From a bacterium (GTDB lineage: Bacteria; Patescibacteriota; Saccharimonadia; Saccharimonadales; SZUA-47), in contig JAUIBF010000001.1 of assembly GCA_030428125.1 (NCBI GenBank), positions 426,383-490,382 of the forward strand: DNA of 64,000 bases, in the 5' to 3' direction. Under the pieces are notes generated by a model that searched no databases, was not told the DNA's origin, and saw only the letters and a list, made by a program, of their open reading frames with translations. The translations under genes and the position numbers were made by a program. This document shows, one piece after another, positions 38,977 through 49,481 of the stretch (positions are counted from its first letter, which is position 1; every line of letters begins with the position of its first letter).

Positions 38977-39006
38977 TTGACCTTATAGCTTTTCAACTGT
39001 TATAAT
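38977..39006 (+). promoter_or_regulatory. sigma70-like promoter of secE-nusG
   Basis: TTGACC (38977-38982), 18 nt, TATAAT (39001-39006). The 5' UTR contains the CTTGAG-GAAA-CTCAAG hairpin (39021-39036). Confidence 0.6.
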
Positions 39007-39061
39007 GTGCCTATTGACTGCTTGAGGAAACTCAAGCTTTTTAAATTGGGAGACATACGAA

Positions 39062-39472
39062 GTGGCAAAAAAAGAAGCCAAAGATAGCAAGAAGCCTAAA
39101 AAGGAAGAAGCTAAGAAGAAATCATCAATGCGTGAAAGCGCTGCTAAATCACGTGAGGCTGCAAACAAACCTAAACGTGTACGTAAAGCAGCAACAGCGG
39201 CTACTAAGCCCGTTGGGAAAGCAGGAAAAGTTCTAACTACTGAATACCATTTGTTTGACAATAAAAAGCAAGGGTTTTTCACGAAAAGTCGTTCATTCAC
39301 ACCGAAATACTTCAGAGAATCTGCCAAAGAGCTTAAGAATGTTACCTGGCCAGGGCGCAAAGAGACTTGGCGATTGGTATTTGCAGTGTTTGTGTTCGCC
39401 ATAGTAATGGGAACATTTATCGCTGTACTTGATTACGGACTAGAAAAAATATTAAGAGAGGTAATACTTTAA
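39062..39472 (+). CDS. secE: Preprotein translocase subunit SecE with long K-rich N-terminal extension
   Basis: GTG start. The C-terminal 60 aa are SecE-like (ELKNVTWPGRKETWRLVFAVFVFAIVMGTFIAVLD). The N-terminal roughly 70 aa are Lys/Ala-rich. Confidence 0.85.
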   Translation: MAKKEAKDSKKPKKEEAKKKSSMRESAAKSREAANKPKRVRKAATAATKPVGKAGKVLTTEYHLFDNKKQGFFTKSRSFTPKYFRESAKELKNVTWPGRKETWRLVFAVFVFAIVMGTFIAVLDYGLEKILREVIL

Positions 39473-40014
39473 TGAGCAAAAGATACGACACCAGTCGTAG
39501 CTGGTATGCAATCCACACCTACAGTGGATACGAAGAAAAAGTCGCGGAATCTATTAGACAACGTGCGGACAGCTTAGATATGAAGGACAAGATCTTTCAA
39601 GTCTTAGTCCCTAAAGAAAAAATGATCGAGATCAAAAACGGTAAGCGAAAAGTTGTTGAGAAGAAGATTTTTCAGGGTTACGTACTTGTCGAAATGAAAC
39701 TGTCGGAAGACGCTTGGTACATCGTGCGAAACACACCTTCTGTAACAGGCTTTGTTGGAACAGGAAACGATCCATCACCAGTTAGCGATGACGAGATAGA
39801 AAAAATCATGAAGCGAATGGGCAAAGAAGAACCTAAGCACAAAATCGACTTTGCTGTTGGCGAAATTGTTAATATCATCGATGGTCCATTCAAAGGATTC
39901 GATGGCTCCATCAATGAGATAGATGAAGCTAAAGGTAAGCTTAAGGTTCTAGTGAACATGTTCGGACGTGAAACTCCAGTTGAGCTAGACGGACTTCAGG
40001 TTAAGAAAACTTAA
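39472..40014 (+). CDS. nusG: Transcription termination/antitermination factor NusG
   Basis: WYAIHTYSGYEEKV NGN start and a KOW motif (GEIVNIIDGPFKGFDGSI); 180 aa. Confidence 0.95.
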   Translation: MSKRYDTSRSWYAIHTYSGYEEKVAESIRQRADSLDMKDKIFQVLVPKEKMIEIKNGKRKVVEKKIFQGYVLVEMKLSEDAWYIVRNTPSVTGFVGTGNDPSPVSDDEIEKIMKRMGKEEPKHKIDFAVGEIVNIIDGPFKGFDGSINEIDEAKGKLKVLVNMFGRETPVELDGLQVKKT

Positions 40015-40035
40015 AAATACTTATAGTTGTTAATT

Positions 40036-40066
40036 AGACATTGCAAGAAATCGGCAATGTCTTTTT
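40036..40066 (+). terminator. Intrinsic terminator after nusG
   Basis: AGACATTGC (40036-40044) pairs with GCAATGTCT (40054-40062), a perfect 9-bp stem followed by T5. Confidence 0.75.
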
Positions 40067-40069
40067 AAT

Positions 40070-40579
40070 ATGATTCAAATGGGAGAGGCGCAAACAGAAA
40101 GAGCTGTTGTTGAGAGAGATGCCGCATCACTTGTGGTTATTTTAACGTCTCTAGATCCTAATGCTGAAAACCCAGTAGCAATGTTACTAGCAAAATCTGG
40201 TTTACATGTAGGACAAGAACCTTACTCCGATTGGGTACTAGGTGATTTTGATCCTACAGCTAATGACAGTAAGGAATTGTTAAGTTTAGCAGGTGAAGCA
40301 GGAATAGTTCAGAGGAACGCCTTAAGAGGTTTAGCATATTTTGGATGTAGAGATCGTGCAAGAGTTGCGGTAATAGATGATTTGTTTGAAGAACGAGAAG
40401 CAGGTTCTGCTGCTGCGCATAAAGCACTACTGAAATATTGTGGGGTAGAAAGACCTACTTACGACAATTTAGTAGGTCGTGCTTGGCACTACAGTGCTTT
40501 GGAAGACACCATAAGAAGTAATGTTGCATATCAGTTAGCCGGAGTTGACCCTGCGAATCTACGAGACGATAGTCGCTAG
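40070..40579 (+). CDS. Hypothetical protein (169 aa ORFan) inserted between nusG and rplK
   Basis: The ORF starts 4 nt after the terminator T-run. It may contain helical repeats. I recognise no motif. Confidence 0.5.
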   Translation: MIQMGEAQTERAVVERDAASLVVILTSLDPNAENPVAMLLAKSGLHVGQEPYSDWVLGDFDPTANDSKELLSLAGEAGIVQRNALRGLAYFGCRDRARVAVIDDLFEEREAGSAAAHKALLKYCGVERPTYDNLVGRAWHYSALEDTIRSNVAYQLAGVDPANLRDDSR

Positions 40580-40674
40580 ACTAAAAGCGTTAAATGTAGT
40601 AAAATAGACAAGTTACGCACCTAAATTAGTAAAGAGAGCTTCTAACTCTTTACAAATTAGAGGAGATTACTTAA

Positions 40675-41106
40675 ATGGCAAAGCCAAAAGTAACAGCAAA
40701 TCTTAAAATGAAACTACGTGGTGGTCAGGCGTCTGCAGCACCTCCTGTTGGTAGTACTCTGGGTCAGTACGGTGTAAACATGATGGATTTCATTACACCA
40801 TTTAACGAAGAAACTAAAGACATGATGGGACAGGATATTACTGTTCATATTGCTATACACGAAGACCGTACAATGTCTTGGCGAGTCGTGGGAACACCTA
40901 CAGACGTACTTATTCTGGCTGCATTGGGTGAAAAGAAGGGTTCAGGACGACCTAATACCGAGAAGCTAACTAAAAAGCTTACAGATGCACAAGTTACCGA
41001 AATCGCTGAAAAGAAAATGGAAGATATGAATACCAACCGACTAGATTCTGTAAAGAAAATGGTGGCTGGAACTGCACGAAGCATGGGAATCGAAGTAGAG
41101 GCTTAA
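40675..41106 (+). CDS. rplK: 50S ribosomal protein L11
   Basis: KMKLRGGQASAAPPVGSTLGQYGVNMMDF is the L11 N-terminal domain signature; 143 aa. Confidence 0.96.
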   Translation: MAKPKVTANLKMKLRGGQASAAPPVGSTLGQYGVNMMDFITPFNEETKDMMGQDITVHIAIHEDRTMSWRVVGTPTDVLILAALGEKKGSGRPNTEKLTKKLTDAQVTEIAEKKMEDMNTNRLDSVKKMVAGTARSMGIEVEA

Positions 41107-41130
41107 TCTAAGGTACAAGAGGCATCTTGA

Positions 41131-41346
41131 ATGGGTGAAAAATTTTCCGGAAATTCCGAAGAAAAGCGCGAAGATAAGAAAGAAGCTGATTTTAATAAAA
41201 TCGAGCGACTTAAAGAGAACCTAATGAAGTTAGAGAAAAGTGCTATCGATAAAGTCGATGAAGGCACGCAAGCTGTAAGAGGTTCTATTCGCGCAATGGG
41301 ATTCGGAATTACTCCTCTGAATGATGATGACGAGGATGACGAATAG
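41131..41346 (+). CDS. Hypothetical 71-aa protein with ...AMGFGITPLNDDDEDDE C-terminus
   Basis: ORF between rplK and rplA, with a charged helical N-terminal part and an acidic tail. Confidence 0.5.
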   Translation: MGEKFSGNSEEKREDKKEADFNKIERLKENLMKLEKSAIDKVDEGTQAVRGSIRAMGFGITPLNDDDEDDE

Positions 41347-41410
41347 TTCGCTTGTTAAGACCCACTAATCTTGTTAAGATTTATTTGTAATTTTAAACAG
41401 GAAAATATAA

Positions 41411-41653
41411 ATGAGCGATGTAATAAATGAGGGAATGCTTGACTTGGCATTTTATGAAGATTTAGATTCTTTGGACAGGGCATATTTCGAGTACTTTGGA
41501 TTTTTAGTAGACGAAATAATCGATACTGATCCAATACCGCAAACTGTTGATGAACAAGAGCTAGTGTGGGAAGTTATCGACGAATTGATGATTGCTCGAC
41601 AGACGGAAATGGGTAACTACCATTCGGTTCAAGTTCTTGAGTCTTACAGTTAA
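41411..41653 (+). CDS. Hypothetical 80-aa highly acidic protein
   Basis: ORF between rplK and rplA, rich in D/E. SD-like CAGGAAAA upstream. Confidence 0.5.
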   Translation: MSDVINEGMLDLAFYEDLDSLDRAYFEYFGFLVDEIIDTDPIPQTVDEQELVWEVIDELMIARQTEMGNYHSVQVLESYS

Positions 41654-41665
41654 ATATTATATAAT
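41637..41665 (+). promoter_or_regulatory. sigma70-like promoter of rplA
   Basis: TTGAGT (41637-41642), 17 nt, TATAAT (41660-41665). Confidence 0.5.
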
Positions 41666-41683
41666 GCAACAACAATTAAAGTT

Positions 41684-41718
41684 GTGGGAGGCGAAGTTTA
41701 AGTAGCCGAATGCACCAC
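41684..41718 (+). promoter_or_regulatory. L1-binding 23S rRNA mimic in the rplA 5' UTR
   Basis: GUGGGAGGC-N12-GCCGAAUGCACCAC. The GUGGGAGGC, AGCCGA and ACCAC blocks match the L1-stalk H76-H78 elements as I recall them from E. coli 23S rRNA. They also match the Methanococcus L1 operator (GGAGGC...GCCGAG). The site ends 14 nt before the ATG. Confidence 0.65.
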
Positions 41719-41732
41719 GAAAGGAATAACTT

Positions 41733-42713
41733 ATGGCCAAAAAGGCTGATTTACTAGCTGAAGCTAAAAAACTAAAGCTAGAAGTAACTGAAAAAAATAC
41801 TATTGCAGATATTGAAGCAGCTATTGCTGGTGTTGCAAAAGTGCAAGAAAAAGCAGAAGAACCTGCTAAAGAAGATAAGACTGTAGCAAAAGCTGGTAAA
41901 AGAAGCGCAAAAGCTATTGCTGAAGCCGAAGAAAAGGCCGAAAAAGAAGAACGAAAAGCTAACAAGTCTGAAGAAGAAGCTAAGCCAGTAAAGCCGGCTT
42001 ATGTACAGAATACGCGTTCTAAGCTAGAACGTTCTGGTAAGAAATACAGAGAAGCAGCAAAACTAGTCGAAAAAGATACAGAATACAGCATTAAAGACGC
42101 CGTTGATTTAGCCGTTAAGACATCTTCAACTAAGTTTGATAGCACTGTAGAACTACACATTAGACTTAATGTTGATCCTAAACAAGCAGACCAAAACATT
42201 CGTGAAAACATCGTATTGCCTGCAGGTACCGGTAAAAGTGTCAAGGTTGCAGTATTCGGTGAAGCTGATGACGTTGCAGCTGCTAAAAAAGCAGGCGCCG
42301 ATATCGCGGGAGCTGATGAATTCTTGCAACAACTAGATAAAGGTGTGATTGACTTCGACGTACTTGTAGCAACCCCTGCTGTAATGGCAAAACTTGGTAA
42401 ATACGCACGCGTACTGGGGCCAAAAGGACTAATGCCTAACCCTAAGAGTGGAACTGTTACAAAAGATGTAGCTAAGGCTGTAGAACAAGCTAAAGCTGGT
42501 AAAGTTGAATACCGTGTTGACGAAACTGGAATCATTCACCTAGGCGTTGGTAAAGTCAGTTTCGGTGCAGACAAGCTATTCGAAAACGTTCAAGCAGTGT
42601 TCGCTAGCGTTAAGGGTGCTAAACCATCAAGTCTAAAAGGTAATTACGTAAACACTATTTACGTGACAACTACAATGGGCCCAAGCATCAAAGTTATAGC
42701 TTCAGAGCTTTAA
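41733..42713 (+). CDS. rplA: 50S ribosomal protein L1 with roughly 95-aa N-terminal extension
   Basis: The C-terminal roughly 230 aa are canonical L1 (FDSTVELHIRLNVDPKQADQNIR, GKYARVLGPKGLMPNPKSGTV). The N-terminus carries a Rho_N/HeH-like segment (DLLAEAKKLKLEVTEKNTIADIEAAIA) and an A/E/K-rich linker. Confidence 0.93.
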   Translation: MAKKADLLAEAKKLKLEVTEKNTIADIEAAIAGVAKVQEKAEEPAKEDKTVAKAGKRSAKAIAEAEEKAEKEERKANKSEEEAKPVKPAYVQNTRSKLERSGKKYREAAKLVEKDTEYSIKDAVDLAVKTSSTKFDSTVELHIRLNVDPKQADQNIRENIVLPAGTGKSVKVAVFGEADDVAAAKKAGADIAGADEFLQQLDKGVIDFDVLVATPAVMAKLGKYARVLGPKGLMPNPKSGTVTKDVAKAVEQAKAGKVEYRVDETGIIHLGVGKVSFGADKLFENVQAVFASVKGAKPSSLKGNYVNTIYVTTTMGPSIKVIASEL

Positions 42714-42730
42714 TTAGATAAAACGATACA

Positions 42731-42759
42731 AAAAAGACCTGAGAAATCCGGTCTTTTTT
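42731..42759 (+). terminator. Intrinsic terminator after rplA
   Basis: AAAAAGACC (42731-42739) pairs with GGTCTTTTT (42750-42758). The loop is 10 nt and the T-run is part of the stem. Confidence 0.65.
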
Positions 42760-42777
42760 GTATGTTAAGCTTTATTC

Positions 42778-43263
42778 ATGCCACATATTCACGAGCTTTA
42801 TGATTTCACGACAAGCGCATTTGTGATTCATCCTAGTGAAAAGAAGCTATTGTTACTATTTCATAAAAAACTTCAGAAATGGCTACAGCCAGGTGGTCAT
42901 GTTGAACTAAACGAAAATCCACTTCAAGCCCTACATCATGAACTGGAAGAAGAGACAGGATTGACGCCAAACGATTACGTGATTATTGAGCCGTCCGAAA
43001 GCCCAGATATCAGTGGCGGAAATATTAAACTGCCTTTGCCTTTCTATTTTAATGAACACCCAATGGGCAACATGCCATCACACAAACATATAGATATTTG
43101 CTATTTGGCAAAGTCGAATACCGTAAAACTTACAGACAACCCAGACGGAGCTACAGCCATTAGCTGGTTTGACGAGAAGGAAATCACTCAACTGTATGAA
43201 AAAGGCGAAATGTTTAAAGACACTTTAGAGATCTGCCAGTGGATATTCGAAAAGCATTTGTAA
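42778..43263 (+). CDS. Nudix hydrolase
   Basis: Nudix box GGHVELNENPLQALHHELEEETGL; 161 aa. Confidence 0.85.
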   Translation: MPHIHELYDFTTSAFVIHPSEKKLLLLFHKKLQKWLQPGGHVELNENPLQALHHELEEETGLTPNDYVIIEPSESPDISGGNIKLPLPFYFNEHPMGNMPSHKHIDICYLAKSNTVKLTDNPDGATAISWFDEKEITQLYEKGEMFKDTLEICQWIFEKHL

Positions 43264-43333
43264 AAACTACGTCGTTTTTTATTGTGCTTATGGTTGTTTG
43301 GTCGCCCTAAGCAGACTAAACTATTAACTAGTT

Positions 43334-44092
43334 ATGGATGAGGGTAGCTCGCAAGCTTTCACTCCACCTTCAATGCCCCCGTCGAAAGACAAGCATGCAG
43401 AAGGTGATGGAGTTTTTAGCAACACACAAATTAAGAGCGCTATATTAAGCGGCCATATTGTTTTCCATCCCTACGTTGAGGAGCATATTGCTGGCAGTAG
43501 CGTCGATGTGACATTGGGTCACTGGTATTACCGTACAGAAAGAAATTCTAATGGTGGATTTTATAACCCGTTTGACGAGAATGATGTAGCAAAACACTTC
43601 GACGGACCACAAGCAGCGGAGATACATCATACTTGGGCAGAAAAAAATGGACGAAGATTATTTTCAGGCATTCCCGAGGACCATCCGATTATTGTTTTGG
43701 GCCCAGGCGAAAGAATACTTGCCCACACACATGAGTTTATAGGTATTCGGCCACCAGGAACTAGCACGATGCAAGCTAGAAGCACGTGGGGCAGAAATGG
43801 TGTTGCGGTATGTTTAGATGCAGGATGGGGTGACCCAGGATACATCAATCGTTGGACGATGGAGATTTATAATATGAACCAGCACCACTCAGTCGTACTG
43901 CCCGTTGGAGAACGCATAGCTCAGATAGTCTTTTACCACACTGGGCCTGTCGACGGTCAATACAAGAAACTAAGTGGAAAATATCAGGTAGATAACGACG
44001 CAGATTTGACAAAGCTAATGAGAGATTGGCGACCTGAGCACATGCTCCCAAGAGGTTTCAAGGACTCTCGCAGAAAGCCTATTGACCTATGA
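43334..44092 (+). CDS. dcd: dCTP deaminase family protein (Dcd or bifunctional Dcd-Dut) with N-terminal extension
   Basis: SVDVTLG, ARSTWGRNGV and GWGDPGY..WTMEIYN...GERIAQIVF match the Dcd/dUTPase-fold trimer family; 252 aa. Confidence 0.8.
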   Translation: MDEGSSQAFTPPSMPPSKDKHAEGDGVFSNTQIKSAILSGHIVFHPYVEEHIAGSSVDVTLGHWYYRTERNSNGGFYNPFDENDVAKHFDGPQAAEIHHTWAEKNGRRLFSGIPEDHPIIVLGPGERILAHTHEFIGIRPPGTSTMQARSTWGRNGVAVCLDAGWGDPGYINRWTMEIYNMNQHHSVVLPVGERIAQIVFYHTGPVDGQYKKLSGKYQVDNDADLTKLMRDWRPEHMLPRGFKDSRRKPIDL

Positions 44093-44919
44093 TTCTTCGT
44101 GGACTAGAGAATATACCTACGGATAGCGCACTGGAAACTGACCTTCGTGTGTATGGACAGCTGCACTCAATAGACAGTTTGCGTGAACCATTACAAAACA
44201 GTGTTCATGGCGTCAATCTAGCAAACCTAAAACCTAGATTCAGTTTCTATTGGCAAAAATACTGGCCTGATTTTGCAAAGTTTGCAGAGTTGTATGGACC
44301 TGATGTGGACCCGGTGCAACACGGCCCGTACCAAGCTAGGACTATCGCCATACCAATGGTAGATGCTCAACGTAGCGCTGGACTATCTGGATTGTCAGGA
44401 AGAACTGGAGAGGCATTTGTTGCGCACACAGTTCAGCACGATGACCATGAAGGTACAGAAGCAAAAAATAGAGGTTCTGACAGAGACAGGCAATACATAG
44501 ACAGGACAGCTCAACACGAACACGATGAATTTGAGCTATGGAAGGACATCCACAGAGAGCTATTCGGAGAAGAAGCTTCAAGGACTCAAATATGGCATGC
44601 TACAAGATTTGAACACGGCAATGGATTTGCTGGCACGCTATTTGGCACAAAAGAATTCATTGGGTATCTAGCAACAGGAATTCAAAGTATTCACATAGCC
44701 ATGGAGGAGCCTGCACTGTTAGATATTGAGCGTGAAGGCGCCTGGGAAATGGGACGCAGGGTTGTTGCACATCATTATCAAAACGTAGCACCAAGTAGGG
44801 AAGTCATTGCCTACTCAGATACGGCTTTGTCTCACGGAGATGAGGCAATTAGAGCAATCACTGACCATTTCGACGTAAGTAGAGAGGAGTTATTTGCAAG
44901 TGAAGTCAGAAGAATTTAA
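44089..44919 (+). CDS. Hypothetical protein (276 aa), translationally coupled inside the dcd - tmk::thyX operon
   Basis: The start overlaps the dcd stop (ATGA), and the 3' end overlaps the tmk::thyX start. It contains a His/Asp/Glu-rich segment (AHTVQHDDHEGTE...QHEHDEFELWKDIHRELFGEE). Confidence 0.6.
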   Translation: MILRGLENIPTDSALETDLRVYGQLHSIDSLREPLQNSVHGVNLANLKPRFSFYWQKYWPDFAKFAELYGPDVDPVQHGPYQARTIAIPMVDAQRSAGLSGLSGRTGEAFVAHTVQHDDHEGTEAKNRGSDRDRQYIDRTAQHEHDEFELWKDIHRELFGEEASRTQIWHATRFEHGNGFAGTLFGTKEFIGYLATGIQSIHIAMEEPALLDIEREGAWEMGRRVVAHHYQNVAPSREVIAYSDTALSHGDEAIRAITDHFDVSREELFASEVRRI

Positions 44920-47218
44920 AGGTAGATTTTTTGTAATTGAGGGAACTGATGCTTCGGGTAAGACAACCCAGTTCAACCTTCTAACTGAGAGGCTACTAAA
45001 CGAAGGTTACGATGTAGTTACGTTTGATTTTCCTCAGTATGATAATGATTCTAGTTTCTTTGTGCGTGAATACTTGGGTGGTAAGTATGGAACTGCTGAC
45101 GAGGTTGGACCCTATACAGCAAGTGTGTTTTATGCCCTGGATAGATTTGCCGCAAAAGATGCTATAAAAGAAGCATTAGATGCAGGTAAAATCGTACTCT
45201 CTAATAGATTCACAGGCAGCAATATGGCGCACCAGGGAACTAAATTCACTAACGCAGAACAACGCAGAGGGTTCTTCATCTGGGAAGACAATTTAGAATT
45301 TCAAATGCTGGGAATTCCTAGACCAACGGCTAGCATCGTTCTCCGTGTAGATGCTCAAACTAGCATGCAATTAATTGAGCTGAGGGCTGAAAAAGAAGGA
45401 CGAGAAAAAGACATTCATGAAGCTGACCAGTCACACCTGGAGCGCTCTGTTGAGGTTTATGACGACCTTTGCGCTTTGTTTCCAAAAGATTTTTTGCGGG
45501 TAGATTGCGTTCGTAGCAAGAAGCTAATGACACGTCATCAAGTTCATGACATTGTCTGGAGCTCTGTCGAAAGATTATTGCCTAAAGCTACGAAAGAAAA
45601 AGGCACGTTAGTAAAGGGTTCCGATAATCAAAAAGAATTGGTCGCAAAGAATTCTGACGGCGTTAATTACATTACAGATGCCGGCAAAGAATTCCTGAAG
45701 GATGCCGTAACTACTACCGAAGGCAATGTTTATGCATTCAGCGATCAAATGAGCCCAATAACCATCGCTGCTGCTATGGCACGATTAAGTCGTAGAGCGG
45801 ATGATATGCGCATCACTATATTGGACGAGTTCTCAAGCAGTACAAGTAAAAAAGATGAAAAACTATTGCAGCGAGTCATTACTGCTTACGGAGACGATTC
45901 GGTTCAGCAACTCGTAGGTCAGCACGTAGTGGTTGAGGGTGCATCTAACTTGCTTACTAAAAAACTAGAGTGGGGACGACTAGCGAGTTACCTAGAGCAG
46001 TCTACAAGATACATATTCTTTGATCAAAAAGATGAACAGGGAAGGTATAAATATGTAACTCCAAGCAACCTAAAAGGTAATGCCTTGCAAAGTTACGTAG
46101 AAATAATGGACGAAATATTTGATACATATTCTGTAATGGTCCGAGAACTAACCGACTATGTCCGTAAAAACTCAAAAACCCCTAAAGCAGAGCAGGATGT
46201 TGCATGGAAAGGTGCAACCAAAGCCCAAGCATGTGATGCAATACGACCTGTTCTGCCAGTAGCTACTAAATCTACCGTGGGAATATTTGCATCAGGACAA
46301 GCACTGGAAAGCTTGATAATGCATCTTCTGAGCGATGAATTGTCAGAATCTAAAGAAACTGGACAGAAAATGCTTGAAGAAAGCAGGAAAGTCCTTAGCA
46401 CGTTCTTAGAGCGCGCTGACAAACCAGAACGTGGAGGCGCTGCCATTGCGTACCGTGCAAACACCAGAGAAGCCACTCGAGACTTAGCTGAAGCATACTT
46501 ACCTGAAAACCATTCTGCCGAGTCAAAGCCTGTGGATCTAGTTTCATATTGGCCTAGAAACGAGATGGATTTAGTCGCCGACATGCTTTATGAATACAGC
46601 AGCTTACCACTCAGAGATATACAGAGAAGCGTTGAAAGCTGGGATTTCGATAAAAAAGAGCAAGTATTTAAATCATACATAGGAGAAAGATTAAACCGTC
46701 GGCATAAACCAGGTAGAGCTTTAGAGAAAGCGCACTATAGTTGGGATTTAGTCTGTGATTACGGTATCTTCAGAGATCTGCAAAGACATCGAATGGTTGA
46801 CGATTTACAGTGGCAACAGTTAACTCCTAGGTACGGATACGATATCCCTGAACTGGTTGAAGAAGCAGGGCTAACGGAAAGTTATCAGCATTGTTTTGAT
46901 AAATCACTAGAGCTATATAGCATTTTGACTGAATCAGGATACGATAACGAAGCACAGTATGCTACATTGTTAGGCCATAAAATGCGTTGGAAGATTACGT
47001 ATAACGCTAGGCAGGCTTTCCATTTCCACGAACTACGAACAACTCCTCACGGTCACCCTGGATATCGTAAATTGGTAAAGCAAATGCACGATGTGGTGTG
47101 TCAGGTACACCCATTAATCGGGCAGGCTATGAAGTTTGTTAATCAAGATGAAGACCCTGAATTAACTCGTCTTGCTGCAGAGCGCTACACGCAGTTTAAG
47201 CTAGAGAAGTTGAACTAA
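44894..47218 (+). CDS. tmk/thyX: Fusion protein of thymidylate kinase and a tandem-duplicated flavin-dependent thymidylate synthase (ThyX-like)
   Basis: The N-terminal roughly 235 aa are Tmk (FFVIEGTDASGKTTQ). The rest holds two ThyX-like halves, WGRLASYLEQSTRY (45971-46012) and LQRHRMV (RHR at 46784-46792). The start may be TTG 44894 or GTG 44900, behind the SD GAGAGGAG. Confidence 0.85.
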   Translation: MQVKSEEFKGRFFVIEGTDASGKTTQFNLLTERLLNEGYDVVTFDFPQYDNDSSFFVREYLGGKYGTADEVGPYTASVFYALDRFAAKDAIKEALDAGKIVLSNRFTGSNMAHQGTKFTNAEQRRGFFIWEDNLEFQMLGIPRPTASIVLRVDAQTSMQLIELRAEKEGREKDIHEADQSHLERSVEVYDDLCALFPKDFLRVDCVRSKKLMTRHQVHDIVWSSVERLLPKATKEKGTLVKGSDNQKELVAKNSDGVNYITDAGKEFLKDAVTTTEGNVYAFSDQMSPITIAAAMARLSRRADDMRITILDEFSSSTSKKDEKLLQRVITAYGDDSVQQLVGQHVVVEGASNLLTKKLEWGRLASYLEQSTRYIFFDQKDEQGRYKYVTPSNLKGNALQSYVEIMDEIFDTYSVMVRELTDYVRKNSKTPKAEQDVAWKGATKAQACDAIRPVLPVATKSTVGIFASGQALESLIMHLLSDELSESKETGQKMLEESRKVLSTFLERADKPERGGAAIAYRANTREATRDLAEAYLPENHSAESKPVDLVSYWPRNEMDLVADMLYEYSSLPLRDIQRSVESWDFDKKEQVFKSYIGERLNRRHKPGRALEKAHYSWDLVCDYGIFRDLQRHRMVDDLQWQQLTPRYGYDIPELVEEAGLTESYQHCFDKSLELYSILTESGYDNEAQYATLLGHKMRWKITYNARQAFHFHELRTTPHGHPGYRKLVKQMHDVVCQVHPLIGQAMKFVNQDEDPELTRLAAERYTQFKLEKLN

Positions 47219-47694
47219 AACTGCAACGTGGCATTTGGTTCGCCAACTACGACTGTCCTCATTAATGGTAGGTTGCCAATTCTTGCTCCCAAGCCAGCAA
47301 TTTCTTGCCCAGTCAGCTCTGATACTGACTCCACAGGCTGAAATGCTACTAAGGTTTGAATCATATCTAGATCAACGACATCACCTGGAATAATGTCTCC
47401 AAGATTATCTCCTGAGTAGCCAAGAGCATTCATAAGTGCTATGTTCGTGGGTGATTCCCGAATTCTAACCTCATCAAAACTAGTAGTTTCTGCGTCTAAT
47501 AGTGGCAGGTACTTGACTCTGTTTCCGTGTATAAAATCCCCTAGAGTTACATCTGCGATATCGCGTCCTTTTTCGGTCAAAGGCGCCTCGGGTTCTGAAG
47601 CCACCAACTCCCTAAATAGTAAACGCTCCTCATCCGCACTAGTCGTGTGACTATGTACTACCCTATCCAACAGAGCATTAAAATTCTTACTCAT
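47215..47694 (-). CDS. Hypothetical protein (159 aa)
   Basis: I prefer the ATG at 47694 (MSKNF...), which has TTGCTT-17-TATTAT 10 nt upstream on the minus strand. The longer track ORF would start inside that promoter. Confidence 0.5.
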   Translation of the reverse strand: MSKNFNALLDRVVHSHTTSADEERLLFRELVASEPEAPLTEKGRDIADVTLGDFIHGNRVKYLPLLDAETTSFDEVRIRESPTNIALMNALGYSGDNLGDIIPGDVVDLDMIQTLVAFQPVESVSELTGQEIAGLGARIGNLPLMRTVVVGEPNATLQF

Positions 47695-47704
47695 ACCATA
47701 GTTC

Positions 47705-47733
47705 ATAATATCACATTTTAAGCATAAAAGCAA
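47705..47733 (-). promoter_or_regulatory. sigma70-like promoter (minus strand)
   Basis: Reverse complement reads TTGCTT (47733-47728), 17 nt, TATTAT (47710-47705). Confidence 0.5.
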
Positions 47734-47909
47734 TAGCATGTGGCGCAAAGTGCTTGACACTCGTGTTGATAGTAGTATTCTAAAAAGTGATGTTTAAATC
47801 ATATGCAACAATTATTAAGAATATTGTCCTCGTTATTCCGATGGGAGGTTCTTTTGCGTATGAGTTGAAGCATTATAGATAACAGCAATCCGAACCGACG
47901 ACCTTAAGC

Positions 47910-47935
47910 CTTCGACTCATCAGTCGAAGTTTTTT
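47910..47935 (+). terminator. Intrinsic terminator-like hairpin in the leader of the 47956 cassette
   Basis: CTTCGACT (47910-47917) pairs with AGTCGAAG (47922-47929), a perfect 8-bp stem with loop CATC, followed by T6. It lies 20 nt before SD AAGGAG and the ATG at 47956. Confidence 0.7.
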
Positions 47936-47955
47936 AATTTAAGGAGATAATAAAA

Positions 47956-48210
47956 ATGACAACTTTAGAGATGAGACCAGATGAGGCATCGTTTGCTGTT
48001 GAAGCGGCACCGACGGCACAGCATGCTGACGCATTAGACCAAGCAGGTGTACTTAAAAGAAGTTTGCAGTGGGTAGCCGCCCTAACATTGCTAGGACACT
48101 ACCCTCCAACTTCAAGCAGTAGAGAATTAGTACACTCACCGCAAATGGCACAAACAACTGGTGTAGCATACGCTAACTCAATACCTGACCGGAGGTCACC
48201 CCTCGAGTAG
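47956..48210 (+). CDS. Hypothetical protein (84 aa ORFan)
   Basis: Strong SD (AAGGAGA). I recognise no motif. Confidence 0.5.
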   Translation: MTTLEMRPDEASFAVEAAPTAQHADALDQAGVLKRSLQWVAALTLLGHYPPTSSSRELVHSPQMAQTTGVAYANSIPDRRSPLE

Positions 48211-48278
48211 AGATGCTATAAATCCCACCTTTGCAATGCAGCCTGCAGAAGTTAGCTGGAATAAATGGAGACGACACT

Positions 48279-48476
48279 ATGAATAAGCCCGGAAGCCGAC
48301 ATAACATTTGTGGAATAGATTCTATATACGGTGGTAGCATGTACAAAGAACCTGGAGATCATCCTGGGATGGACGTTTATGATGCTCGTGACGGAACCAA
48401 TACCTGGATGGATCGTCAAATTGCAATAGTAACTGGAGCTGGGACTTTAACAGTTGAACAAGAAGTAGACGGCTAG
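48279..48476 (+). CDS. Hypothetical protein (65 aa ORFan)
   Basis: I prefer the ATG at 48279, with SD GGAG 8 nt upstream, over the TTG at 48231 in the track. Confidence 0.45.
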   Translation: MNKPGSRHNICGIDSIYGGSMYKEPGDHPGMDVYDARDGTNTWMDRQIAIVTGAGTLTVEQEVDG

Positions 48477-48522
48477 ATTCTCATAATTAATTTTGTCGTG
48501 TTTATATTATATAGTATGTTTT

Positions 48523-49308
48523 ATGATCGTTAATCTGAATCGAAATGGTTTTGGGCTACAATACGGAGTTAGGTTTGATGAAGAACCACTAATTAACAGT
48601 TTTTGGTTTGACTATGCCGATGATTACTTAGAGCATTTAACGTCTGTAGGACCAATGGTCATAGGTGGAGAACCCGGTGCAGGCAAAAGTCATATTGCAA
48701 ACGATATTTTAGTTGCCGCTCACGATGCCAATAAGGCGTTTCTAATGATAGCGTGCCATATTAATGGCGGCAACTTAAAGGGTCGAGACCAGACTATAGA
48801 ATCATTACAGACAGCTCAAGAGCTAGGTGATGAAGCCGTTGTAGTATTTGATAATTTTGATTTTGCAGTTTATACAGGAGCCGTAAAAAGACGAAAAAGC
48901 AACGCTAAAGTTGCAGAGTACTGTGATTTTGTGACAACTGCTGCTCAACAATGTGCTGATGCTGGATGTGGTGTTTTAGCGACTACACATACAGATGAAT
49001 GGAGGAAGAATCATTCCGATGCACCTGTCGAAGTGTTTGATAAGTTTCATTGCACCGTAGATAAATTAAAAGGCTTTCAAGAATTTTTCGGGAATATATC
49101 AGTCGATAATGCAATAAGAATTTTAATTGGACGTGGTTTGAGTCCTGAGGACGCAAATTTTATAGCTCTAGAACTAGAAAAACAAGGAGGTCTATATTTC
49201 CGACAGGCCTACCATATTGATCCTAATAAAGTAGCAAGAAATGGAATTATTGATGCTATGCAAGACGTAGTAGATTTAAAAAACAAAAAAATAGCAGGCG
49301 GGGCTTAG
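48523..49308 (+). CDS. P-loop NTPase (minimal AAA-like ATPase)
   Basis: Walker A GGEPGAGKSH and Walker B AVVVFDNFD. I prefer the ATG at 48523 (MIVNLNRNG...) over the TTG at 48493. Confidence 0.6.
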   Translation: MIVNLNRNGFGLQYGVRFDEEPLINSFWFDYADDYLEHLTSVGPMVIGGEPGAGKSHIANDILVAAHDANKAFLMIACHINGGNLKGRDQTIESLQTAQELGDEAVVVFDNFDFAVYTGAVKRRKSNAKVAEYCDFVTTAAQQCADAGCGVLATTHTDEWRKNHSDAPVEVFDKFHCTVDKLKGFQEFFGNISVDNAIRILIGRGLSPEDANFIALELEKQGGLYFRQAYHIDPNKVARNGIIDAMQDVVDLKNKKIAGGA

Positions 49309-49324
49309 TTAGCTCGATATAAGA

Positions 49325-49353
49325 TTGTAATTACCTATCAGAGGTGCTATAAT
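49325..49353 (+). promoter_or_regulatory. sigma70-like promoter of the rplJ-rplL leader
   Basis: TTGTAA (49325-49330), 17 nt, TATAAT (49348-49353). Confidence 0.6.
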
Positions 49354-49360
49354 TACATCT

Positions 49361-49481
49361 GTTACCGAAGACAGTAGCTGGAGAAATCCTTAATCGCGCT
49401 ACCGAGGATAATAAAGAGATTTATTGTTTTTGAGCACTAAGACGCTACTTCGGAAGAAGTAGTTTTTTAATACTCGGTAAC
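49361..49481 (+). promoter_or_regulatory. Structured rplJ leader (L10-leader-like) containing an internal terminator
   Basis: GTTACCGA (49361-49368) is complementary to TCGGTAAC (49474-49481). That pairing encloses the internal terminator hairpin at 49445-49468. The leader is about 185 nt long. Confidence 0.5.
49445..49468 (+). terminator. Leader terminator upstream of rplJ
   Basis: CTACTTC-GGAA-GAAGTAG is a perfect 7-bp stem with a GGAA tetraloop, followed by T6. It lies 74 nt before the rplJ ATG. Confidence 0.7.

Follow-up and report, generated by a model that had tools for sequence, protein, structure and literature searches.

In E. coli, the L1 operator lies ahead of rplK and controls both rplK and rplA by translational coupling (PMC3616713). 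L1-interacting RNAs were also reported directly ahead of rplA in Cyanobacteria, Actinobacteria, and Chloroflexi, and over 40% of Firmicutes were reported to carry sites ahead of both rplK and rplA (Fu et al. 2013, PMC3616713). Both sites of Geobacillus kaustophilus bind L1 with a Kd of 25–50 nM, as measured by filter binding (Fu et al. 2013, PMC3616713). Members of this family have a stem of 6–12 bp broken by an internal bulge; they bind L1 at nanomolar concentrations, and binding is lost when the guanosines of the bulge are mutated; and they are located directly before rplK or rplA, beside the ribosome binding site (Fu et al. 2013, PMC3616713). In archaea, the operator regulates an L1-L10-L12 operon (PMC3616713).

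We analyzed a 64-kb stretch of DNA, hereafter called the window, in which rplA is preceded by GUGGGAGGC–12 nt–GCCGAAUGCACCAC at 41684–41718, 3' of a promoter-like site and 14 nt ahead of the rplA ATG. This sequence is made up of GTGGGAGGC (41684–41692), GAAGTTTAAGTA (41693–41704), and GCCGAATGCACCAC (41705–41718). The original prediction read these blocks as an L1 autoregulatory operator that mimics the L1 stalk of 23S rRNA. On re-reading, the sequence and coordinates that it gave for the blocks were exact, and the spacing of 14 nt between CCAC and the ATG at 41733 was also borne out. The full element (41682–41720) reads UUGUGG-GA-GGC-GAAGUUUAAGUA-GCC-GAAUGCA-CCACGA, and its parts are listed in Table 1. 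Within the internal loop, A41689 faces G41708, and the two could form a non-canonical pair. No terminator-like hairpin or U-run was found between the element and the rplA ATG.

Table 1. Positions of the rplA leader features and of rplA in the window.
Feature	Position	Strand	Remarks
Promoter-like site, TTGAGT-17-TATAAT	41637..41665	+	-35 at 41637-41642, -10 at 41660-41665
P1 5' strand, UUGUGG	41682..41687	+	Core GUGG (41684-41687) equals the 5' strand of 23S helix 77
Unpaired G and A, 5' side of internal loop	41688..41689	+	Counterpart of 23S G2125 and A2126
P2 hairpin	41690..41707	+	GGC 41690-41692, 12-nt loop 41693-41704, GCC 41705-41707; counterpart of the base of 23S helix 78
Internal loop, 3' side, GAAUGCA	41708..41714	+	Shortened counterpart of E. 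coli 23S G2162-A2173
P1 3' strand, CCACGA	41715..41720	+	Core CCAC (41715-41718) equals the 3' strand of 23S helix 77
Shine-Dalgarno, AGGA	41722..41725	+	3 nt past P1, 7 nt ahead of ATG
rplA (ribosomal protein L1, 326 aa)	41733..42713	+	Pfam Ribosomal_L1, E 5.6e-63

We examined the window sequence by itself. The pattern GTGGGAG-N10-40-ACCAC occurred once in the 64 kb, compared with 0.08 occurrences expected by chance, and 8 of 100 shuffled versions of the window contained it at least once. P2 of the window has just three pairs and a loop of 12 nt. When folded alone, the RNA had a minimum free energy of −11 kcal/mol and a z of +0.34 against shuffles, a value at which thermodynamics alone would have discarded a real element; the minimum-energy structure predicted also differed from P1/P2. 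Because the lone fold is this weak, the structure would need to be stabilized by a bound protein; that is, P1/P2 is probably held by its ligand.

The region was then compared across 80 Saccharibacteria rplA loci. The closest L1 genes showed 53–76% identity and came from metagenome-assembled genomes that were nearly all Candidatus Saccharibacteria or Saccharimonadales, and an L1 protein identical to that of the window was encoded on a Logan contig from run ERR3428546. On these grounds, the window derives from an uncultured member of Saccharibacteria (TM7). For 78 of the 80 loci, we read the 75 nt upstream of the rplA ATG, the other two having no assigned ATG. The design that recurred among them was uuGUGG-GA-(helix of 3–9 pairs, variable in sequence)-G-N6-CCAC-(G)AAAGGAG-N6-9-AUG, where (G)AAAGGAG stands at the position of AGGA in the window. 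Using R1, a covariance model made only from Saccharibacteria leader sequences, the same element was detected ahead of rplA in 75 of the 80 related genomes with one match per locus, and no match was detected ahead of rplK in any of the 80 loci. The distance from CCAC to the ATG was 11–15 nt in 66 of 73 sequences, and the distance to the Shine-Dalgarno sequence was 3–5 nt. Meanwhile, the gap between rplK and the element varied from 7 nt to 2.2 kb and was at least 120 nt in 49 of 69 relatives. The element moves with rplA and not with rplK.

The 73 distinct copies were aligned with MAFFT, and a structure composed of P1 (6 pairs) and P2 (7 pairs) was scored. T, G, G, A, and CCAC were invariant in all 73 copies, and another five positions were conserved in at least 90%. 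In the loop GA, the A was invariant and the G was conserved in at least 90%; likewise, the 3' strand of the loop was nearly always 7 nt long, with its first G and its last A each conserved in at least 90%. The U-A, G-C, and G-C pairs of P1 were present in 73/73 copies and the outer G-C pair in 67/73. The proportion of paired cells was 85.5%, compared with 71.3% in shuffles, and the covariation score was 0.335, compared with 0.112 in shuffles; none of 500 shuffles scored as high, the slid controls scored 0.06–0.13, and a longer alignment gave similar figures. Compensatory double changes were present at all seven modelled pairs of P2, including a change of the closing G-C to C-G in 7 sequences, and RNAalifold predicted the same P1 and P2 helices with no structural input. 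The three inner pairs of P1 never varied; i.e., their support is invariance, not covariation. The original prediction had drawn a GUGG/CCAC closing helix and a GGC/GCC inner helix, both of which agree with the alignment and with RNAalifold, and it had named the comparison of the spacer among relatives as a check; in that comparison the element was conserved and its inner helix covaried strongly.

At the position after the conserved loop G, both the window (A41709) and E. coli rRNA have A, and the relatives mostly have C or U. Thus, this group does not conserve the "unpaired adenosine" that the published consensus contains, and Saccharibacteria 23S rRNA also has C at the matching position. Six loci had no recognizable L1 operator in the flanks examined (L037, L045, L055, L057, L066, and L076), and in five of them the rplK stop codon abuts the rplA ATG. 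An unfiltered search of the flanks of these six loci found neither an E. coli-like site ahead of rplK nor any other L1-like site. In these six lineages, L1 feedback may be absent or differently built.

The L1 stalk of 23S rRNA was compared with the element. In E. coli, the stalk reads GGUGGGAGGCUUUGAAG...GGAGCCGACCUUGAAAUACCACC at nt 2120–2178, and the original prediction had quoted it correctly. Helix 77 is formed by GGUGG (2120–2124) and CCACC (2174–2178), and G2125-A2126 come next. Helix 78 runs from G2127-G-C to G-C-C2161, and the strand G2162–A2173 returns to helix 77. The core common to the element and to nt 2121–2177 of E. coli 23S rRNA is GUGG-GA-G...C-(G/A)...A-CCAC. In these terms, the element has helix 77, GA, and three pairs from the start of helix 78, with a shorter strand leading back. 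As the Rfam scan found no rRNA gene in the window, rRNA operons of Saccharibacteria were fetched with the TM7905 16S probe sequence; 12 blocks gave a full reading of the L1 stalk, and BLAST brought the number to 14. All of the full readings had AUAGGUGG-GA-G(N)C...G(N)C-(A/G)-CC(R)GUGAAAUA-CCACC, and the rRNA of the phylum thus has GUGGGAG and ACCAC in common with the leader, the shared core being judged by eye and the 23S sequences belonging to other members of the phylum. Five assemblies with an rplA locus (L011, L012, L019, L045, and L051) also had 16S-bearing blocks, none of which reached the L1 stalk. The proposed mimicry of the L1-binding region of 23S rRNA is therefore supported by a core common to E. 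coli and Saccharibacteria. Shared with the stalk are GUGG/CCAC of helix 77, the GA bulge, and the G-C pair that closes helix 78, along with the purine that follows this helix and the A ahead of CCAC. Meanwhile, the mRNA element differs in having no helix 76, in the reduction of helix 78 to 3–9 pairs, and in the shortening of the strand from helix 78 to helix 77 from 12 to 7 nt.

R1 was searched against the window and against loci from other phyla. In the window, the single strong match was at 41682–41720 with 36.8 bits, and the next best scored 11.6 bits. In a 2.6-kb E. coli locus from secE to rplJ, the best R1 match was GGGAGCCUCUCAGAGGCGUUAUUACC of the rplK leader, with 17.2 bits and E 3e-4, the next match having 4.8 bits; this is the classical L1 operator, which has been defined experimentally. 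In Bacillaceae, a site approximately 20 nt ahead of the rplA ATG was found in 40/40 loci with 15.9–34 bits, in addition to weaker rplK-proximal sites with 11–16 bits. The reading of the element as an L1 operator is well supported because a model built from Saccharibacteria alone finds established L1 operators in E. coli and Bacillaceae. R1 gave no match to the 23S rRNA of Saccharibacteria and E. coli, in which the length of helix 78 and of the 12-nt strand amounts to an insertion too large for the model, and it did not detect the archaeal L1 operator in the archaeal loci. An Rfam/Infernal scan with L1-leader models had also been put forward as a check, and it matched no curated model: there was no L1-type match in the whole window at the gathering threshold or in 40500–41800 at E up to 10. 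Rfam appears to have no model that recognizes the L1 leader, so that the null result would reflect a missing model and not a missing element.

The Bacillaceae loci have one additional feature. Immediately before the rplA-proximal L1 site (L203–L282, ~810–850) stands a terminator-like hairpin, GGGUUGCG...CGCAACCC, which is followed by UUAUU. This hairpin suggests a further layer of control at the rplK/rplA junction in that family.

We propose that the element is very probably an L1-binding operator in an autogenous feedback loop on rplA, as the original prediction held; it is conserved, it covaries, and R1 groups it with experimentally established L1 operators. In the inferred mechanism, L1 would bind the element and repress translation sterically. 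The leader of approximately 60 nt would fold into P1 (UUGUGG/CCACGA) and P2 (GGC/GCC) around the asymmetric loop GA/GAAUGCA, and this fold would reproduce the site at which L1 docks in the ribosome: helix 77, the first pairs of helix 78, and the GA bulge between them. As long as there is 23S rRNA to bind, newly made L1 would go into ribosomes; once in excess, L1 would bind the weaker copy on the mRNA. Bound L1, at 3 nt from the Shine-Dalgarno sequence, would then exclude the 30S subunit, and L1 synthesis would be shut down.

We considered three other explanations. The first accepts that L1 binds and has it act on the stability or processing of the mRNA, or on transcription through the short leader, instead of blocking initiation sterically. 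Bound L1 could change the access of RNases to a short leader whose free RNA is weakly folded, and the hairpin of Bacillaceae makes more than one layer of control at the junction possible; however, neither a terminator-like hairpin nor a U-run stands from the element to the ATG, and the fixed spacing to the ATG and the Shine-Dalgarno sequence (66/73) suits a steric translational operator. The L1 operators of E. coli and Methanococcus act on translation, which also counts against this explanation, and we consider it unlikely. The second explanation is that a conserved structured leader serves another factor or is a processing or stability signal, its likeness to the L1 stalk being incidental. 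The support for an operator consists of sequence evidence, and the invariant P1 has no covariation behind it, both of which leave room for such a role. However, the nucleotides that never vary are those which 23S rRNA also has in helix 77, in the GA bulge, and at the base of helix 78. The element keeps its place before rplA regardless of its upstream surroundings, at 7 nt to 2.2 kb from rplK, and R1 recognizes known L1 operators from two further phyla; another role is therefore very unlikely. Third, chance resemblance to 23S rRNA in an AT-rich intergenic spacer might be argued from the 8 in 100 shuffles of the window that contain the pattern and from the insignificant fold of the single sequence, but it has practically no probability left and is refuted by the comparative data, as 75 of the 80 related genomes have the element and its pairs show compensatory changes, and the element is the unique strong R1 match in the window.

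The L1 operator would be transcribed together with rplA from a promoter of its own. The TTGAGT-17-TATAAT sequence, cited as a promoter in the original prediction, was present and was the best promoter-like site of 39000–43500, matching at 10 of 12 positions; as a class, promoter-like sites were not enriched in that region, with 6 found vs 9.5 expected. Transcription would start at approximately 41672, which would give a 5' UTR of approximately 60 nt. A perfect TATAAT starts 22–25 nt upstream of the element both in the window and in L002, L003, L005, L007, L011, L012, L015, L041, L046, and L061, and slightly further away in L073. In most of these 11 related loci it was preceded by TG, and in these loci rplK is distant. 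That rplA has its own promoter, as was proposed, is plausible because TATAAT recurs in the same register in the 11 related loci.

The product of rplA has the L1 core fold in residues 100–324, after an N-terminal extension of approximately 99 aa. Its top PDB match among L1 structures was 3j3v (1.9e-70), and entries for Thermus thermophilus L1 were also matched, e.g., 1zho and 2hw8, which are presumably L1-mRNA complexes. The standard core could be aligned from end to end with solved L1 structures, that of T. thermophilus among them, and we take the FDxTVE and TMGP stretches of the alignment to be RNA-binding motifs. The extension (41733–42029, the first ~99 codons) is rich in Lys, Ala, and Glu; judged by where tblastn matches start, many relatives have it too, and others have a shorter or poorly conserved version. 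Conservation of the leader, the Shine-Dalgarno sequence, and the ATG shows that the extension is translated.

The usual nusG-rplK-rplA-rplJ-rplL cluster is broken up in the window (40070–49477). The order upstream of rplA is secE, nusG, an ORF of 169 aa, rplK (40675–41106), an ORF of 71 aa, and an ORF of 80 aa; downstream, the L10 leader (49347–49477) follows rplA after approximately 6.6 kb, a stretch that includes a NUDIX gene, a dCTP-deaminase-like gene, and others. The two ORFs between rplK and rplA had both been called ORFans. This description holds for the 80-aa ORF, which had no relatives in the loci examined, and fails for the 71-aa ORF (41131–41346), which has homologues at the same position in three loci (L001, L002, and L007) with 53–61% identity. 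No homologue of the 80-aa or the 169-aa ORF was found in the 80 related loci.

The rplK leader of the window was reported to contain no GGGAG-type site. We found none there either, the sole strong R1 match in the window being that ahead of rplA. The leader (40577–40674) has a conserved design of its own, which was also present in L004, L005, L014, L015, L019, L031, L035, L042, L052, and others. Its promoter-like site is TAGACT-17-TAAAAT, the form in relatives being TAGACAACAGGGGT..TGTAGTAnAAT, and GUUACGCAC (40612–40620), which is unique in the window, was present in 34 of 55 related rplK leaders. Some of the Shine-Dalgarno sequence is base-paired within a hairpin at 40620–40663, the loop of which, AGCUUCUAA (40637–40645), recurs as GCUUC(U)A(A) on differing stems in at least 14 loci and is the reverse complement of UUAGAAGCU. 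The loop of 23S helix 43 at the L11 site reads UUAGAAGC (E. coli 1065–1072) and is identical in 14 Saccharibacteria 23S genes; these 14 genes continue with A, so that 8/9 positions are complementary to the rplK loop. In the sense direction, 6/8 positions of the rplK loop match the helix 43 loop. The hairpin matched no Rfam family. Six other loci (L016, L020, L039, L041, L051, and L076) have a different rplK leader, in which GGGAAGGAG, a covarying hairpin, and CGAAA stand 30–40 nt before the ATG. The GGAG-helix-CG of these six leaders resembles the L1 core motif, and R1 does not score it. L076, which carries this alternative rplK leader, is also one of the loci that have no rplA-proximal element. 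We tentatively suggest, as a rather doubtful reading, that the rplK-rplA unit was split by inserted small genes in this Saccharibacteria lineage and that each part has its own control: rplA its own promoter and L1 operator, and rplK a leader with GUUACGCAC at the 5' end and a hairpin, with a loop related to that of helix 43, that might be an undescribed operator for L11 or another factor.

These results would add Saccharibacteria, a phylum within the candidate phyla radiation, to the groups in which this ribosomal-protein feedback element is known; our literature search found no report that links ribosomal leaders with Saccharibacteria or Patescibacteria. They indicate that the rplA-proximal L1 operator stays with rplA while the surrounding ribosomal gene cluster breaks up. 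They are also of use for annotation, since no Rfam model recovers the element and the alignment of 73 sequences could serve as the seed of a new one. The understanding of L1 autoregulation is unchanged, as the rplA-proximal arrangement is already documented elsewhere.

Finally, we compared the element with the known L1 operators. The pattern GUGAAGGAGGC-N15-GCCGAGAAACUUCAC, which we take to be that of the crystallized Methanococcus RNA, was exactly conserved in 105 archaeal genome stretches, mostly of methanogens; its carriers include Methanobrevibacter, Methanocaldococcus, and a Thermococci bin (L284–L363, e.g., L349 1429–1469, minus strand). The Methanococcus-type operator cited in the original prediction (GGAGGC...GCCGAG) thus exists in archaea in this form. 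The archaeal MvaL1/MjaL1 operator shares with the window the core GA-GGC...GCC-GA internal-loop motif inside a closing helix, and it differs in its location within the L1 coding sequence, in the closing helix GUGAAG/CUUCAC, and in a shorter 3' strand. In Methanocaldococcus indicus, the operator starts 28 nt after the AUG, within the L1 ORF, and codes for VKEARQKAKPRNF, whereas the window site is in the 5' UTR, with rplJ approximately 6.6 kb downstream behind its own L10 leader. Since the Methanocaldococcus operator lies inside the L1 ORF and rplA of the window is not followed by rplJ-rplL, the arrangement is not archaeal-like, contrary to what had been proposed.

The E. coli operator in the rplK leader has the same succession of P1, GA, P2 closed by G-C, G, a 6-nt strand, and the 3' strand of P1, at a similar distance to the Shine-Dalgarno sequence and AUG. 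Its 3' loop strand is G-UUAUUA, and exactly GUUAUUA occurs in L012 and L073. Its P1 is different, being GG/CC and not the helix 77-identical GUGG/CCAC. In Bacillaceae, the consensus of the rplA-proximal site is almost identical to that of Saccharibacteria, and its position directly before the rplA Shine-Dalgarno sequence is the same. The site of Bacillus inaquosorum reads UUCGUGGGAG-GUUAUUC-CG-CUAUAA-CCAC-AUAAGGAGG-N10-AUG, compared with UUGUGGGAG-GC...GC-CG-AAUGCA-CCAC-GAAAGGA-N7-AUG in the window, and the Bacillus site UUCGUGGGAGGUUAUUCCGCUAUAACCACAUAAGGAGG is nearly the Saccharibacteria consensus. As Bacillaceae have the same GUGG/CCAC design, a stem identical to helix 77 is not special to the window element. 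The surroundings differ: rplK of Bacillaceae directly neighbors rplA, is co-transcribed with it, and has a second site ahead of it, whereas the window has a gap of 575 nt with two small ORFs between rplK and rplA, an apparent promoter for rplA, and no second site. The relocation of the operator from rplK to rplA, which the original prediction stressed, is not notable, since sites preceding rplA were reported in 2013 (PMC3616713) and the Bacillaceae consensus is practically the same. Measured against the family described by Fu et al. 2013, the element has P1 of 4–6 pairs and P2 of 3–9 pairs around an asymmetric loop, an unpaired GA as in the family description (with the base after the loop G varying among relatives), a position at the rplA ribosome binding site, a likeness to accepted members, and mimicry of the L1 site of 23S rRNA. 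As judged from these comparisons, the element is an ordinary member of the family, of the rplA-proximal type.
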